NCBI GenBank assembly: GCA_964587725.1
Contig: CAZPLO010000003.1
Span: forward strand, 1,135-65,134
Direction: 5' to 3'
DNA: 64,000 nt
Source of the DNA: an uncultured archaeon
GTDB lineage: Archaea; Altiarchaeota; Altiarchaeia; IMC4; SCGC-AAA252-I15
Shown here piece by piece: positions 3,200-55,150 of the stretch. How positions within the stretch are numbered: the stretch's first letter is position 1; each line of letters opens with the position of its first letter. The translations under genes and the position numbers were made by a program. Under the pieces are notes generated by a model, which saw only the letters and a program-made list of their open reading frames with translations, did no database searches and was not told the origin of the DNA.

Positions 3200-3215
3200 G
3201 TTAACAATTGTTAAC
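3200..3215. promoter_or_regulatory. Perfect 16-bp palindrome GTTAACAATTGTTAAC 6 nt upstream of the iscS ATG (candidate operator)
   Basis: Seen directly. Sits between a TTTAATAC TATA-like element and the start codon. The same motif recurs at 6990, 8514, 11158 and 7028. Confidence 0.5.
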
Positions 3216-3249
3216 ACAGATGTATTAAAGTATGTACGTAACCAACCAG

Positions 3250-5211: not shown

Positions 5212-5327
5212 AGCGAGGGGAGGGATTCGAACCCTCGGATAATGGCTTGCCGCATGCTTCAGGGCGTTGGAGCCCGTCCGCTTTTTTTTTTGCAGGCCAC
5301 CCCATTAGGCCGCTCTGGCACCCTCGC
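5212..5327 (-). tRNA. tRNA-Cys (anticodon GCA) with an intron of about 42 nt in the anticodon loop (canonical 37/38); CCA not encoded
   Basis: Minus-strand sense: GCGAGGG-UG-CCAG-AGCGGCCUA-AUGG-G-GUGGC-CUGCAA[A8 GCGGACGGGCUCCAACGCCCUGAAGCAUGCGGCA]A-GCCAU-UAUCC-GAGGG-UUCGAAU-CCCUC-CCCUCGC-U. The 7-bp acceptor pairs perfectly. T-loop is UUCGAAU. Anticodon stem GUGGC/GCCAU. U73 discriminator, typical of tRNA-Cys. Folded by hand only. Confidence 0.55.
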
Positions 5328-6989: not shown

Positions 6990-7005
6990 CTTAACAATTG
7001 TTAAG
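6990..7005. promoter_or_regulatory. 16-bp palindrome CTTAACAATTGTTAAG, plus a variant TTAACGATTGTTA at 7028-7042, in the divergent region between cysK and the HTH gene
   Basis: Seen directly. Same core as the sites at 3200, 8514 and 11158. Confidence 0.5.
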
Positions 7006-7075
7006 GATATGTAATACTAGTATAAAAACTTAACGATTGTTACTATTTTTAAAGGTTAACGCCGTTAATGTTATC

Positions 7076-7366
7076 ATGAAGCTCCCATGCGAAGAGGCGT
7101 TGTGGTATATGCTGCCGCGTATACGCGCGGACATTGCCAAAGAGCTGGTTAAAATGGGTTTGAGCCAGAAGGAGGCCGCCAAGAAGCTGGGCGTCACCCC
7201 ATCTGCCGTGTCACAGTACCTTCACAAAAAGCGCGGCGGAAAGGCGAAGATGCCGAAGGACTACGGCAAAATGGTTGAGGCGACGGCGGAGAAGCTCCTG
7301 GAGGCGGACGACGAAGCGGTCGTACTCGCGCTGCTGTGCAGGTGCTGCAGCGCAGCCCGGCGTTAG
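7076..7366 (+). CDS. Small HTH DNA-binding protein (sigma-70 region 4/DUF134-like helix-turn-helix, C-terminal CxCC); candidate regulator of the adjacent palindromic sites
   Basis: LSQKEAAKKLGVTPSAVSQYLHKKRG HTH signature. The track ORF starts at 7037; ATG at 7076 (MKLPCEE) is likely. Confidence 0.45.
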   Translation: MKLPCEEALWYMLPRIRADIAKELVKMGLSQKEAAKKLGVTPSAVSQYLHKKRGGKAKMPKDYGKMVEATAEKLLEADDEAVVLALLCRCCSAARR

Positions 7367-8513: not shown

Positions 8514-8527
8514 TTAACAATTGTTAA
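8514..8527. promoter_or_regulatory. 14-bp palindrome TTAACAATTGTTAA immediately upstream of the 4Fe-4S protein gene
   Basis: Seen directly. Confidence 0.5.
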
Positions 8528-8578
8528 CTATTATGGTATTGGGTTATAAATACTCCCCCCATCATCGAGGATAGCCTG

Positions 8579-11157: not shown

Positions 11158-11171
11158 ACTAACAATCGTTA
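11158..11171. promoter_or_regulatory. Variant palindrome TAACAATCGTTAA about 15 nt upstream of the metY ATG
   Basis: Matches 12 of 14 positions of TTAACAATTGTTAA. It is the reverse complement of the 7028 variant. Confidence 0.4.
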
Positions 11172-11225
11172 AGTCTAATATAAATACTTGTCGCATATTT
11201 TCATGCAAATATGCATAGAATATCC

Positions 11226-50786: not shown

Positions 50787-51101
50787 ATGACTAAGAGAGA
50801 GAAGGAGCTGGACATCATGGGGTTCCTGGCGTCGAAGAAGTGGATACTCCTGGTGCTGACCGAACTCTACTTCCACGGCACCCAGCGGTTCAACGAACTC
50901 CTGGAGAACATGCGTGTGGTGAGCCCGAAGATATTGTCGCGGCGGCTGAAGGAACTGGAGGAGCGCGGCCTCGTGGTCCGCCGGAAGTTCAACGAGATCC
51001 CCCCGCGGGTCGAGTACACCCTGACTTCCAAGGGCATGGAGTTGGTGAAGTCGTTCGAGGGCATCGGGAAGTGGGCTATCAAGTGGGAGCGCGACCTCTA
51101 G
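50787..51101 (+). CDS. HxlR-family winged-helix transcription regulator
   Basis: KKWILLVLTELYFHGTQRFNELLENMRVVSPKILSRRLKELEERGLV. Confidence 0.7.
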   Translation: MTKREKELDIMGFLASKKWILLVLTELYFHGTQRFNELLENMRVVSPKILSRRLKELEERGLVVRRKFNEIPPRVEYTLTSKGMELVKSFEGIGKWAIKWERDL

Positions 51102-51624
51102 ACTCCAGGACCTCCGTGAACTCAGGCGTCCAATCCCTTTCCAGAATGTGTTTTCCGCCGGTCTGGAGCCAATCGACTATCGCTTCCACATCAACCCCTT
51201 CCGTGTTGTCCAACTCCAACACGTTCCCGCACCTTTTAAGGCTCTCATATAATATGACTCCTTCATATTCTGCTTCCAGGTTTTCCATAATCTTCCCGTC
51301 CGCGTAGCCGCGTTCCTTCATCCGTTTCTCCAGCAGGCGGGGGTCACACCGCAGCACCAGGACGTGGGTGGGGTCGAGTAGGTGGCTTAGCAACCCGTCC
51401 AATATGGTATTCGATTCCACTAGCCTCCAAACCTTCTCCTTCAGTCTGCCGGCGTCCACCACTTTGGTGTTCCTCTCTTCGTCGAACCTGTCGCACAGGC
51501 CTTCGCGTTCGACCAACAATGTCAATTCCATGACCTTCCACCCGAGGCGTTCCCCCAGTTTCCGGGCCAGCGTGGTCTTCCCCGTGCAGGGGGTGCCGGT
51601 GACCGCCAATACATTGTACGCCAT
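51079..51624 (-). CDS. P-loop kinase, Fap7/adenylate kinase isoenzyme 6-like
   Basis: VTGTPCTGKTT Walker A. 181 aa. Confidence 0.55.
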   Translation of the reverse strand: MAYNVLAVTGTPCTGKTTLARKLGERLGWKVMELTLLVEREGLCDRFDEERNTKVVDAGRLKEKVWRLVESNTILDGLLSHLLDPTHVLVLRCDPRLLEKRMKERGYADGKIMENLEAEYEGVILYESLKRCGNVLELDNTEGVDVEAIVDWLQTGGKHILERDWTPEFTEVLESRGRAPT

Positions 51625-51677
51625 TTTTTAACCGCTGAAGCGAATACTTTAACAGTATTTGGGGAGGCGACTATATT

Positions 51678-52019
51678 ATGTCCAACTGGAAGCTGCAGGT
51701 GCTGTTTTTGGCTCTGCTGGTGGTGTCGGATGCGGCAGCCGCCGCCACTGAGATGAAAGACATAGCCTGCAATGTCATCAAACCCATCTACGAAACCCTG
51801 AAGACCATCGCCCCCGCCCTGGTCCTGTTGATGTTCACCTACGGCGCCGTCAAGTACGCCCTCGCATCCGACGACCCCGGCGGCCGGAAGCAGGCTAAAA
51901 ACATCATGATACACGCCATCATCGCAGGCCTCATCATCGGCATCATATTATGGTTGATGGATGATGTTCTAGGACTCCTTAGCCAAGACTTGAAGAACTG
52001 TCTAGGCATAACGGCTTGA
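51678..52019 (+). CDS. Paralog 1 of the secreted two-helix hairpin family (SADDPGGRKQ loop)
   Basis: Sec-type signal peptide; mature IACNVIKP..helix1 APALVLLMFTYGAVKYALASDDPGGRKQAKNIMIHAIIAGLIIGIILWLM helix2..KNCLGITA. SD-like GGGAGG lies upstream. Confidence 0.6.
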   Translation: MSNWKLQVLFLALLVVSDAAAAATEMKDIACNVIKPIYETLKTIAPALVLLMFTYGAVKYALASDDPGGRKQAKNIMIHAIIAGLIIGIILWLMDDVLGLLSQDLKNCLGITA

Positions 52020-52083
52020 TGTTGAATCTGTTTGTTGTTTTTTTAACCTGTGAAGTGAATACTGTAACGGAGGCGTTGTTGTT

Positions 52084-52464
52084 ATGGTTAGGCGGTTGCT
52101 GGTTTTGCTGGCTGTTTTCACGCTGCTGGCTGTAGCAGCGTTTCCCGCATCCGCGGCGACAAACAAGTTGAAGGAAAACTTCTGTGAGATAGTGGTGTTG
52201 CTGCATAAGGTCCTGACGTATGTTGGGCCCACGATAGTGCTGCTGATGTTCCTCTACGGCGGCATCAAATACGTTTATTCCGCCGAGGACCCCGGCGGCC
52301 GGAAGCAGGCTAAAAACATCATGATACACGCGCTCATAGCGGGCATACTGCTGGGGCTCGCTGTGGTCATCATCGAGTTCGTGATCCCCACCATAAAAAA
52401 CGACATTGATGCCTGCTACAGGCTAGCTGGTGCGGGGGCCAGGGTCGACATTCAACCCACCTGA
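52084..52464 (+). CDS. Paralog 2 of the hairpin family
   Basis: Signal MVRRLLVLLAVFTLLAVAAFPASA; LLMFLYGGIKYVYSAEDPGGRKQAKNIMIHALIAG. Its 5' region including the signal peptide is identical to paralog 3. Confidence 0.6.
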   Translation: MVRRLLVLLAVFTLLAVAAFPASAATNKLKENFCEIVVLLHKVLTYVGPTIVLLMFLYGGIKYVYSAEDPGGRKQAKNIMIHALIAGILLGLAVVIIEFVIPTIKNDIDACYRLAGAGARVDIQPT

Positions 52465-52529
52465 TTAGACTCCTGGTTGGTTGTTTTTTTAACCTGTGAA
52501 GTGAATACTGTAACGGAGGCGTTGTTGTT

Positions 52530-52862
52530 ATGGTTAGGCGGTTGCTGGTTTTGCTGGCTGTTTTCACGCTGCTGGCTGTAGCAGTGTTTCCAGCATCCGC
52601 TAATATGGAAAAGAGCCTTGACGACACGCTCTGCGACATCCTGAAGGCCATAGGGTATGCGTTGGGAACCGTCGGCCCCATGCTTGTCGCATTGATGTTC
52701 CTCTACGGCGGAGTCAAGTACGTTTCTTCCGCAGACGACCCCGGCGGTCGCAAGCAGGGCAAGACCATATGCATACATGCGGTGATAGGCGGCATAATCA
52801 TAGCATTGGCTCACACGCTGGTGACTATGGTGGTTAATGTTCCATGCGACTTCTACTCCTGA
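52530..52862 (+). CDS. Paralog 3 of the hairpin family
   Basis: Same leader as paralog 2; LMFLYGGVKYVSSADDPGGRKQGKTICIHAVIGG. Confidence 0.6.
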   Translation: MVRRLLVLLAVFTLLAVAVFPASANMEKSLDDTLCDILKAIGYALGTVGPMLVALMFLYGGVKYVSSADDPGGRKQGKTICIHAVIGGIIIALAHTLVTMVVNVPCDFYS

Positions 52863-52918
52863 CCGCGCAAACGGTTTTTTAACGCATAAGCGGAATATAT
52901 AACAGCGAGGGGCTTCAA

Positions 52919-53284
52919 ATGCGTATCAGCGGTTTCAGGGTCTTCCAGCTAACAATAATCGCATTATACCTGCTGTCTTGTTTTTCAACGGCGGTTGACG
53001 AGTTCGCTTTAAGGGATTCCTTCTGTGGCGTAATCAACGAAATAGGCGACGTATTGGAGAAAGTCGCCCCGGTCCTGGTGCTGCTGATGTTCACCTACGG
53101 CGGCGTCAAATACGTGTTCTCCGCGGACGACCCCGGCGGCCGGAAGCAGGGGAAGATGATATGCATATACTCCATTATCGGCGGAATCCTGATAATCCTC
53201 ACATGGGAGATGATAAAGCTAATATTCGGTTCCCTACCCCAAAATTTCCGATGCCCTACAACACCTTGGATGTCGAACCTATAG
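52919..53284 (+). CDS. Paralog 4 of the hairpin family
   Basis: LLMFTYGGVKYVFSADDPGGRKQGKMICIYSIIGG. Confidence 0.6.
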   Translation: MRISGFRVFQLTIIALYLLSCFSTAVDEFALRDSFCGVINEIGDVLEKVAPVLVLLMFTYGGVKYVFSADDPGGRKQGKMICIYSIIGGILIILTWEMIKLIFGSLPQNFRCPTTPWMSNL

Positions 53285-53425
53285 GACTAATATTCTGTTC
53301 CATCCCATATGATCTCTGGTGCCCTAAGGGTTTTTACTGGCCATGATTTCTAGGCAGCCCCAAAGTCCGTCAAAATCTTTTTTTAACCTGTGAAGCGAAT
53401 ATTTAATCACCTCAACGGTGAACCC

Positions 53426-53758
53426 ATGAACAGAGACAACCTACTCCATATTCTCATGCTGGTGGCGGTTCTCGCGGCATCCGTCGACGGAGCATCCGCT
53501 AACCTGCACTCCAAGGTCTGCCCTATTCTGGAGGCGTTCATCGACGTGTTGGAGACCATAGCTCCGGCGTTGGTTCTGCTGGTGTTCACCTACGGCGGCG
53601 TCAAATACATTTCGTCGGCGGACGACCCCGGCGGCCGGAAGCAGGGTAAATCCATACTGATACACGCCATAATCGGCGGCATAATAATAATTATAGCCCG
53701 GTTCGTCGTGGGGATTGTGTTCTCAGGATGGGGCGACCAATGCCCGGGGGTTCTCTAA
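53426..53758 (+). CDS. Paralog 5 of the hairpin family (first gene of a five-gene operon)
   Basis: LLVFTYGGVKYISSADDPGGRKQGKSILIHAIIGG. The track start is 53390; ATG at 53426. Confidence 0.6.
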   Translation: MNRDNLLHILMLVAVLAASVDGASANLHSKVCPILEAFIDVLETIAPALVLLVFTYGGVKYISSADDPGGRKQGKSILIHAIIGGIIIIIARFVVGIVFSGWGDQCPGVL

Positions 53759-53760
53759 CC

Positions 53761-54135
53761 ATGCGGGGTTTATATTCAAACACCAGGGTGGGGTTGAAGG
53801 CGGCGGCGGCCGTCCTTCTTTTACAGTCGGTGTCAGCCACCACGGACATTGCCTTGGCTTTCAAGAATGCGCCGTGCATGATAATCGGCCAGGCATACGG
53901 TGTCGTCAACACGGTCGGCCCCGCCCTGATACTGGTCATGATGTTCTATGCGGTGGCAAAGTACGCGTACAGCGCGGACGACCCCGGCGGCCGGAAGCAG
54001 GCCAAAACCATATTCATCCACGCCATCATCGCGGGTATGTTCTTCGCACTGGTGGCCATAGTCTTCAGGATACTGGAAACCAACATTAGCTGGCTGTTCA
54101 AGGCCGGGAATCTCTGCTCGGGGGTTACTCTATGA
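53761..54135 (+). CDS. Paralog 6 of the hairpin family
   Basis: LVMMFYAVAKYAYSADDPGGRKQAKTIFIHAIIAG. The ATG is 3 nt after the paralog 5 stop. Confidence 0.6.
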   Translation: MRGLYSNTRVGLKAAAAVLLLQSVSATTDIALAFKNAPCMIIGQAYGVVNTVGPALILVMMFYAVAKYAYSADDPGGRKQAKTIFIHAIIAGMFFALVAIVFRILETNISWLFKAGNLCSGVTL

Positions 54136-54482
54136 GGACAAGAAACCTCATGCATGCTCTGACCCTGGTTTCACTGCTTACGTCCGGATCCAGTGTGTCG
54201 GGCGCATCGAACGCCATACACACGGTGCCGTGCAAACTATTGGGTGGCCTGTTCTCGGCGCTCACCACCATCGGCCCGTCCCTGGTGTTGTTGATGATGG
54301 TCTATGGAGCCGCCAAGTACGCGTTCAGCGCGGACGACCCCGGCGGCCGGAAGCAGGGGAAGACCATATTCATCCACGCAATCATCGGGGCCGTCATTAT
54401 GGGGCTCATATACATAATAGTTAAGGCTGTATTGGGTGCCTCATACGGTGACTATTTATGTTCGGGGGTGAAGTTCACGTAA
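54132..54482 (+). CDS. Paralog 7 of the hairpin family
   Basis: LLMMVYGAAKYAFSADDPGGRKQGKTIFIHAIIGA. Start overlaps the previous stop (ATGA). Confidence 0.6.
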   Translation: MRTRNLMHALTLVSLLTSGSSVSGASNAIHTVPCKLLGGLFSALTTIGPSLVLLMMVYGAAKYAFSADDPGGRKQGKTIFIHAIIGAVIMGLIYIIVKAVLGASYGDYLCSGVKFT

Positions 54483-54483
54483 A

Positions 54484-54831
54484 ATGTCGCTCGCACACAA
54501 GATTAAGTGGGTGGCGCCAACCGTCCTAATGTTCCTGTTGGTGTTAAGCCTGTTGGCGCCCACGGTGTCTGCATCCTACCTGGGCCCAATAACAACATTC
54601 TTAAAATCTTTAATCAACTCTATTCGCATAATAGGGAACTCAATCGCAGTCGTAATGTTCATCTACGGGGCGGCCAGGTACGTCTACGCATCCGATGACC
54701 CCGGCGGCCGGAAGCAGGCCATAAGCATATGCATAGCCTCGGTTGTGGCGTTGATAATCATCTTTATAGCGGAGTCTGTTATCGGCGCTATCTGTGCGTC
54801 GATGGGGCCTGACTGTAATCCTGTTAGCTAA
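54484..54831 (+). CDS. Paralog 8 of the hairpin family
   Basis: VVMFIYGAARYVYASDDPGGRKQAISICIASVVA. Confidence 0.6.
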   Translation: MSLAHKIKWVAPTVLMFLLVLSLLAPTVSASYLGPITTFLKSLINSIRIIGNSIAVVMFIYGAARYVYASDDPGGRKQAISICIASVVALIIIFIAESVIGAICASMGPDCNPVS

Positions 54832-54832
54832 A

Positions 54833-55150
54833 ATGAGGTATAAAATAGCGTATGCGGCGGCTTTGCTGGCTTTAATCTCAGCCGGCGTTCAGGCCACAAC
54901 CGTCGACGCAGCCGGCATAATAGCGAATGTCATATGCGACCTGGTGCCTGAGGTCATAAACCTGGCTTACGTTCTAGCGTTGCTGATGTTCATCTACGCG
55001 GGCGCCAAGTACGCGTTCAGCGCGGACGACCCCGGCGGCCGGAAGAAGGCGAAGTCGATTGCGGTCCAGGCGATTGTGGGTTTCCTGATAGTCGGCGTGT
55101 CGAAGGCCCTGGTGGAGGCCATAGCCGGTGCAGGCAACGTCTGCCCCTAA
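54833..55150 (+). CDS. Paralog 9 of the hairpin family
   Basis: LLMFIYAGAKYAFSADDPGGRKKAKSIAVQAIVGF. ATG at 54833 (track 54794). The stop overlaps the aglB stop convergently. Confidence 0.6.
   Translation: MRYKIAYAAALLALISAGVQATTVDAAGIIANVICDLVPEVINLAYVLALLMFIYAGAKYAFSADDPGGRKKAKSIAVQAIVGFLIVGVSKALVEAIAGAGNVCP

Follow-up and report, generated by a model that had tools for sequence, protein, structure and literature searches.

A repeated 30-nucleotide element before VirB2-like pilin genes of an Altiarchaeota archaeon: a probable core promoter duplicated with its gene

Why should five neighbouring genes of an archaeon be preceded by almost the same 30 nucleotides (nt)? The question is raised by a stretch of 64,000 nt of contig CAZPLO010000003.1 (assembly GCA_964587725.1, an uncultured Altiarchaeota archaeon), which was analysed as a whole and is called here the window. 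Nine paralogous pilin genes (P1-P9) lie there head to tail, and an element of about 30 nt, with the consensus TTTTTT(T)AACC-N8-GAATAYTnTAAC, is present in five copies, all on the plus strand and all just upstream of P1-P5. This element is a real, selected cis-element. A duplicated core promoter accounts for it better than a new kind of regulatory site would; more precisely, we consider it probable that the element represents the entire core promoter belonging to the first gene (A-type) of a VirB2-like pilin operon, tandemly duplicated together with that gene. The five copies are listed below with their scores against a position weight matrix (PWM) built from the window copies.

51624-51653, plus strand: copy 1, TTTTTTAACC gctgaagc GAATACTTTAAC, with a TATA-like Box A at 51624-51633 and Box B at 51642-51653; 45.1 bits; abuts the start codon of a divergent kinase gene
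52038-52068, plus strand: copy 2, TTTTTTTAACC tgtgaagt GAATACTGTAAC; 44.9 bits; 19 nt past the P1 stop codon
52484-52514, plus strand: copy 3, same sequence as copy 2
52875-52904, plus strand: copy 4, degenerate, TTTTTTAACG cataagcg GAATATATAACA; 35.8 bits
53378-53408, plus strand: copy 5, TTTTTTTAACC tgtgaagc GAATATTTAATC; 46.7 bits; putative promoter of the P5-P9 operon

A repeat finder reported a single family of five 30-nt copies, starting at 51624, 52039, 52485, 52874 and 53379 and showing 100%, 87%, 87%, 67% and 83% identity to copy 1, respectively. The same five copies gave the five highest PWM scores of the window (36-47 bits), the next-best match reaching 12.8 bits. The recurrent element described in the initial annotation before paralogs 1-5 is thereby confirmed, as is its upstream placement; its span, given there as -60 to -30, actually runs from about -54/-44 to -25/-16 relative to the ATG. 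For the source genome the motif search covered the 64-kb window on both strands, where the degenerate pattern TTTTTTAACNNNTRAAGYGRAATAY, with up to three mismatches allowed, was found at four sites only; 100 dinucleotide-preserving shuffles, used as control, contained no match. The exact 13-mer core TGAAGYGAATAYT occurs in the window solely at these same four sites. Copy 4 has about one third of its positions changed and lacks TGAAG in register, while TTTTTTAAC and GAATAT are kept in register. A scan of 185,579 representative genomes, with the source genome not among them, returned six single matches in unrelated bacteria, which is close to chance expectation.

The copies might resemble each other only as leftovers of duplication or gene conversion that serve no function today. 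Copies 2 and 3 are indeed not independent, both lying inside one homogenised tract within which they are identical:

52030-52154, plus strand: 125-nt tract, 98% identical to 52476-52600, covering the promoter, Shine-Dalgarno (SD) sequence and signal-peptide codons of P2/P3

The tract begins 9 nt before the T-run and ends at about codon 23, and the remainders of P2 and P3 are 57% identical in amino acids; it looks like the product of gene conversion or of a recent partial or chimeric duplication. The use of the same codons for a DDPGGRKQ motif in nearly all nine genes also favours a relic. Among copies 1, 2/3 and 5, however, the element is 83-87% identical, compared with 20-40% for the 30-nt flanks, 51-57% for coding DNA and 35-60% for four-fold degenerate sites. 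The edges of the element are sharp on both sides, in a background that is already randomised. This holds for copies 1, 4 and 5, where the flanks are random and synonymous sites near saturation, and it argues that the element is under selection. Both boxes are also conserved at orthologous loci of other genomes, and a relic devoid of function is very improbable.

The relatives that provide this evidence comprise 98 pilin genes, with seven syntenic loci of other Altiarchaeota assemblies and 19 further metagenome contigs carrying pilin arrays; all named homologues come from metagenome-assembled genomes (MAGs) of Candidatus Altiarchaeota/Altiarchaeales. When the PWM was scanned over the window and 25 related loci (194 kb, both strands), all matches of at least 17 bits lay on the sense strand directly before pilin genes, those in relatives being at L012 (33.8 bits), L009 (29.9 bits), L008 (19.5 bits) and L011 (17.2 bits). 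Gene association, strand specificity and conservation at orthologous loci were thus all found, the last at these four loci. Before the first A-type pilin gene of syntenic loci in named MAGs stand TTTTTTAACCattgaattGAATAATTTAC (L009), TTTTTAACCgtctgttgcGAATTAATTATC (L008) and TTTTTTAACCtgttttgcGAATACTTTAC (L012). An alignment of 22 pilin promoters from 17 contigs revealed a common layout: Box A reads TTT(T/A)AA(C)(C) and is separated by 8-11 nt from Box B, (G/A)AATA(W)T, which is followed by a leader 10-31 nt long (exceptionally 2 nt before p1 of L007) and then by the ATG. The T-run is missing from Box A of more distant relatives, which there has the form of a canonical TATA box (TTTAAAT, TTTATAAG). 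The spacer sequence TGAAGYG is not conserved in relatives, which have ttgaatt (L009), tgttttgc (L012) or tatatgtc (L011) instead; outside the window the nearest relatives (L008, L012 and L007) share only the G(C/T)G that directly precedes GAATA.

We propose that Box A (TTTTTTAACC) would be the TATA box bound by TBP/TFB, and that Box B (GAATAYTnTAAC), 8 nt past Box A, would combine an AT-rich -10 promoter-proximal element with the initiator region. The predicted start sites follow directly on Box B, at about 51654-51659, 52066-52071, 52512-52517, 52903-52909 and 53408-53414, and the resulting leaders would be short (about 12-24 nt) and carry the SD. What we infer from the DNA sequence is which boxes act as TATA box and promoter-proximal element, where transcription starts, that it ends at the T-run, and that the genes are co-expressed. 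A promoter layout with a -10 promoter-proximal element is known in archaea (PMC5316973). Box B has the A+T richness of such an element and sits where the generic promoters of the window are AT-rich, at about -15 to -4.

These generic promoters offer a useful comparison. A TATA-like 8-mer was found in 28 other upstream regions of the window, mostly 25-41 nt before the start codon, which makes most mRNAs of the window look leaderless. Frequently the 8-mer continues into AC(C), examples being TTTATAACCC, TTAAATAACCC and TATATTAAACC. Counted from the start of the TATA box, A+T content is 0.8-0.9 at +19 to +29 in generic promoters, and Box B of the pilin promoters lies at +18 to +29. The pilin promoters share features of an archaeal core promoter, being intergenic and on the sense strand, with a T/A-rich 8-10-mer, an AT-rich block 8-11 nt further on and a short GGAGG leader. 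They differ in that Box A is here a T-run with no visible B recognition element (BRE), and in that TGAAGYG-GAATAYT is specific to the family and absent from other promoters of the window; their own traits are the exact sequence and the SD-bearing leader. The SD sequences of P1-P5 are as follows.

51663-51667, plus strand: SD of P1, GGAGG, 10 nt before the ATG
52069-52073, plus strand: SD of P2, GGAGG, 10 nt before the ATG
52515-52519, plus strand: SD of P3, GGAGG, 10 nt before the ATG
52907-52912, plus strand: SD of P4, GAGGGG
53417-53421, plus strand: SD of P5, GGTGA, weak

A GGAGG-type SD about 10 nt before the ATG, which had been proposed for all five genes, is thus present in P1-P3, but not in P4 (GAGGGG) or P5 (GGTGA only).

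Which of the two boxes is the TATA box? It has to be considered that the true BRE/TATA consists of Box B and the G(C/T)GAA in front of it, that the T-run acts only as terminator or insulator, and that the mRNAs are leaderless or nearly so. GYGAA-TAYTTTAAC looks like a TATA box with a purine-rich BRE before it, the majority of the other genes in the window seem leaderless, as described above, and a start about 26 nt past Box B would fall within a few nt of the ATG for P1, P5, L009 p1 and L007 p2. Furthermore, oligo-T runs are intrinsic terminators in archaea. In P2-P4, however, where the end of Box B is 14-15 nt from the ATG, such a start would fall inside the open reading frame and a well-placed SD would remain untranscribed. 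An SD (GGAGG, GAGGT or GGTGA) is found 5-10 nt before the ATG in 20 of the 22 pilin promoters. Copy 1, L009 and L008 have the T-run/Box A without any co-directional pilin gene upstream, and Box A of distant relatives is the canonical TATA box without T-run mentioned above. We consider this arrangement of the promoter quite unlikely. From Box A it is 42-54 nt to the ATG and 28-39 nt to the SD, a geometry that is compatible with a TATA box and tight for P2-P4. In archaea the TATA box is centred at about -27 relative to the start site. With Box B as the TATA box the mRNA of P2-P4 would lose its SD, whereas Box A is sufficiently distant to retain it; this is one of the reasons for reading Box A as the TATA box. 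The earlier suggestion that the T-run plus AAC serves as TATA/BRE is in this respect supported for the TATA box, if indirectly, by the canonical TATA at the same position in relatives and by the generic TATA followed by AC(C); its BRE part was not supported.

Several observations weigh against a core promoter of this kind. No conserved or purine-rich BRE-like block was found in the 8 nt upstream of Box A in the 22 promoters; a BRE is not visible in every archaeal promoter, and its absence is compatible with a promoter of this class. TTTTTTAACC differs from the canonical TTTAWATA box, and the usual distance from TATA box to start site puts the mRNA starts of P2-P4 at the SD or 1-2 nt from it, which is tight. 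The alignment of the 22 promoters was anchored by hand. In addition, the P2/P3 tract and the shared DDPGGRKQ codons point to concerted evolution in the array, and part of the identity within the genome may not reflect selection. Finally, the spacer TGAAGYG is more conserved within the genome than a core-promoter spacer normally needs, which leaves room for an extra factor.

Such a factor could be a dedicated regulator, for which TGAAGYG-GAATAYT would also be the binding site and which would switch the pilin paralogs together. Core-promoter spacers are usually free to vary, and here the spacer is near-invariant in copies 1, 2/3 and 5 while the flanks are randomised; G(C/T)GAATA also recurs in L008, L012 and L007. 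In 5 of the 22 promoters, copy 1 included, a perfect inverted repeat of 6 bp or more extends across the predicted start, with Box B as its left arm (0.99 expected from shuffles, P=0.0025), a test that was post hoc and made on an AT-rich, hand-anchored set. Moreover, all long loci have a gene for an HxlR-type regulator in synteny with the array. On the other hand, TGAAGYG is not kept in orthologous promoters and has no dyad symmetry, copies 2-5 are without the dyad, and concerted evolution could account for the identity within the genome. The linkage of the HxlR gene is weak evidence, since this gene converges with that of the kinase and belongs to a core region that is syntenic in general. A regulator of this type seems rather unlikely. 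The segment between the TATA box and the start, earlier regarded as a candidate operator or initiator, can thus be divided: GAATAYT is conserved across orthologs and matches a -10 element, whereas TGAAGYG, restricted to the window and without dyad, gives no support to an operator. Coordinated expression from the shared promoters may reasonably be inferred.

The dyad of copy 1, AATACT-N5-AGTATT, is situated at 51643-51659 across the predicted P1 start site and is found in no other copy of the window. Perfect inverted repeats of 6-7 bp that include Box B and span the predicted start also occur in L012 (about 63-79) and L007 (9190-9207). Two direct TTTAAC repeats were examined as a factor-binding site and rejected, the second TAAC not being conserved outside the window. 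An RNA element was likewise rejected, as the copies have no structure in common and no Rfam match was obtained for 50.5-55.5 kb at E <= 1.

A more far-reaching version of the regulator would make the 30-nt module a portable terminator-promoter cassette, whose -20 to -4 segment (TGAAGYG-GAATAYT) is recognised by a factor of its own, be it a regulator or a variant of TFB/TBP. We regard this as unlikely. If it were true, the segment would be extended to the start-site dyad at copy 1, the factor would control the proportions of alternative A-type subunits or the change from one to another, and the filament concerned would be one of VirB2-like proteins in an archaeon without neighbouring type IV secretion machinery.

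Copy 1 deserves particular attention, because it abuts a gene on the opposite strand:

51079-51624, minus strand: divergent AAA_18/putative kinase gene, its ATG touching copy 1

The spacer that contains copy 1 is 53 nt long and must hold two divergent promoters. If the kinase mRNA is leaderless, the TATA box of the kinase gene could be TTAAAGTA, which is complementary to Box B and occupies -28 to -21 relative to the kinase ATG. Box B is nevertheless kept in copies 2-5 and at loci where a gene other than the kinase lies upstream (L008 and L031), which indicates that it serves the pilin promoter itself. The sequence of copy 1 was also recovered in Logan contigs L032 (SRR7048220) and L033 (SRR7048218), found via a look-up with the kinase gene; these are independent assemblies of the same population, aligned to window positions 51560-51902, and are identical across copy 1. 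Both end inside P1, exactly at the repeated DNA coding for DDPGGRKQAKN, which implies that the order and number of paralogs in such arrays depend on assembly quality. An exact look-up of P1 matched no contig.

How did one promoter come to stand before five genes? The answer we favour lies in the types of the pilin genes, which are listed here with the scores of hidden Markov models (HMMs) for types A-E.

51678-52019, plus strand: P1, VirB2/TrbC-like pilin (PF18895), extra A/B-like copy, apparently monocistronic
52084-52464, plus strand: P2, pilin, extra A/B-like copy
52530-52862, plus strand: P3, pilin, extra A-like copy
52919-53284, plus strand: P4, pilin, extra A-like copy
53426-55150, plus strand: P5-P9, five-gene pilin operon
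53426-53758, plus strand: P5, type A, best HMM score A, 120 bits
53761-54135, plus strand: P6, type B, best HMM score B, 99 bits
54132-54482, plus strand: P7, type C, best HMM score C, 126 bits
54484-54831, plus strand: P8, type D, best HMM score D, 133 bits
54833-55150, plus strand: P9, type E, best HMM score E, 139 bits

Five positional pilin types, A-E, were recovered both by a tree (pilins of 12 of these loci, the window included) and by the HMMs, which were built from relatives only, with the window excluded. P5-P9 are read as the ancestral five-gene A-E operon because these HMMs assign them to A, B, C, D and E; among the extra copies, P3 and P4 score slightly better with A, and P1 and P2 slightly better with B. 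The junctions within P5-P9 are 2 nt, a 4-nt ATGA overlap, 1 nt and 1 nt, in agreement with the packing by 0-3 nt spacers or ATGA overlaps reported in the initial annotation, and inside P5-P9 there is no motif copy, no intergenic gap and no T-run of at least 5. Four single genes plus one five-gene operon behind near-identical promoters, as proposed there, fit both the sequence and the A-E types of relatives. The unit made up of the promoter and the A-type gene would have been tandemly duplicated upstream of the A-B-C-D-E operon, giving rise to four extra single-gene units, P1-P4. Extra promoter-bearing pilin copies upstream of the canonical operon are also found in L007, L011 and L019. The P4-P5 spacer contains a further trace, which we interpret as a scar of tandem duplication:

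53287-53326, plus strand: degenerate copy (75%) of the P4 3' end (53219-53258), 40 nt

The T6-7 run of each downstream copy (52038-52044, 52484-52490, 52875-52880 and 53378-53384) probably doubles as an oligo-T terminator of the preceding gene and would thereby keep P1-P4 monocistronic. Of eight intergenic T-runs of at least 6 on the plus strand of the window, five belong to these elements. As in archaeal oligo-T terminators, T6-T7 runs lie on the sense strand, 13-94 nt past the P1-P4 stop codons; they differ in that the T-run is also part of the next promoter, and in that copy 1 has no co-directional gene upstream.

The DDPGGRKQ loop is encoded by nearly the same 24 nt in all nine genes, at 51870, 52285, 52734, 53126, 53621, 53977, 54333, 54694 and 55025. 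The fraction of identical codons in this loop is 0.89 in the window versus 0.17-0.58 in six relatives of similar G+C, and 0.67 in L009, where only 3 comparisons are available. This suggests either gene conversion over short tracts or a constraint on the nucleotide sequence itself.

The nine proteins are about 100-130 amino acids long, and share 28-42% identity with P1. In each of them a signal peptide precedes two hydrophobic helices; the DDPGGRK loop is invariant, and two cysteines are conserved. Pfam family PF18895 (T4SS_pilin) matches all nine, eight of them with 31-49 bits against a gathering cut-off of 26.6 bits and P6 with 26.4 bits, while PF04956 (TrbC/VirB2) matches several, P3 and P9 passing its threshold. 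In the AlphaFold model of P3 (mean pLDDT 87.9) a signal helix is followed by a helical hairpin, with helices at 2-18, 30-66 and 71-101. A PDB profile search for the pilin fold returned only a spurious coiled-coil match, and a Foldseek search with the pilin model nothing below E=0.98; helical hairpins hold too little information for such searches. The two cysteines are kept in at least 90% of the family (P1-P9 and 63 homologues), at the start of the first mature helix and near the C-terminus; in a helical hairpin they would be at the open end, where they could form a disulfide staple.

Comparable arrays are known from Patescibacteria, also called CPR (candidate phyla radiation), in which 441 tandem arrays of 2-11 VirB2-like pilin genes (PF18895/PF04956) have been reported (PMC12102498; 10.1101/2025.01.22.634366). 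The Pfam families and the divergent head-to-tail paralogs are common to both. In contrast, the array described here belongs to an archaeal host, includes a five-type A-E operon, occupies a chromosomal glycosylation locus convergent with AglB, and has no VirB4/VirB6 among the scanned flanking genes or at syntenic loci. To our knowledge, the promoter structure of CPR pilin arrays has not been described. The Ced/Ted DNA-import pili of Crenarchaeota (CedA1, TedC) are built from archaeal VirB2-like helix-loop-helix pilins with a signal peptide (PMC9905601). The predicted structure of P3, a signal helix plus a helical hairpin, resembles them, whereas the pilins of the window have no sequence or Foldseek match to solved pilins and no adjacent CedA/CedB-type machinery, and are distinguished by nine paralogs, the DDPGGRKQ loop and two near-invariant cysteines. 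A literature search found no paper linking Altiarchaeota to VirB4 or to these pilins.

The array is bordered by the divergent kinase gene, an HxlR-type regulator gene (50787-51101), a convergent gene for the oligosaccharyltransferase AglB/STT3, and genes for prenyltransferases and glycosyltransferases. At seven Altiarchaeota loci the gene order is HxlR, kinase (minus strand), 4-6 pilins (plus strand), AglB (minus strand) and prenyltransferase. The pilin array with the A-E operon is located at 51.6-55.15 kb of the window, at 8797-11041 of L007, 9686-11334 of L008 and 8673-10312 of L009, and in L029, L030 and L031; across Altiarchaeota loci it always converges on AglB, in a glycosylation neighbourhood. 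The rest of the scanned window has a housekeeping character (CysRS, cysteine and methionine synthesis, FttA, proteasome and primase). No VirB4/VirB6- or CedA/CedB-type gene was found among 48 scanned flanking genes of the window, 28 of which span 38.9-51.6 kb and 55.1-63.6 kb, nor within 10 kb on either side at the seven syntenic loci. A mobile-element or viral origin of the array was rejected, as no relatives occur in viral contigs and the neighbours are housekeeping and glycosylation genes.

We know of no cultured genetic system and no start-site maps for Altiarchaeota. The element would provide a promoter model for this group, namely a TATA-like box ending in AACC combined with an AT-rich -10 box. 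Copying of the promoter together with the first gene would also explain how a five-gene pilin operon grew to nine genes, and the copies of the promoter point to a need for an excess of the A-type subunit, as would be expected of a major subunit. The genes themselves are the more promising lead: an operon of VirB2-like A-E pilins occurs across Altiarchaeota beside the N-glycosylation enzyme AglB, with no secretion ATPase nearby.

Two further features of the window lie outside the pilin array. The palindrome TTAACAATTGTTAA(C), once in the variant form ACTAACAATCGTTAAG, occurs at four sites (about 3203-3218, about 6990-7003, 8514-8528 and about 11160-11173). These sites are in promoter regions of sulfur amino-acid genes, encoding a cysteine desulfurase-like protein, cysteine synthase/serine acetyltransferase, a ferredoxin-domain protein, homoserine acetyltransferase and O-acetylhomoserine sulfhydrylase. 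The palindrome also adjoins an HTH_3 regulator gene (7037-7366) and looks like the operator of a Cys/Met regulon. In addition, a tRNA gene at 5212-5327 on the minus strand, detected with Rfam (45.7 bits) and missed by ARAGORN, carries a 44-nt insertion that is probably an intron containing an A10 run.

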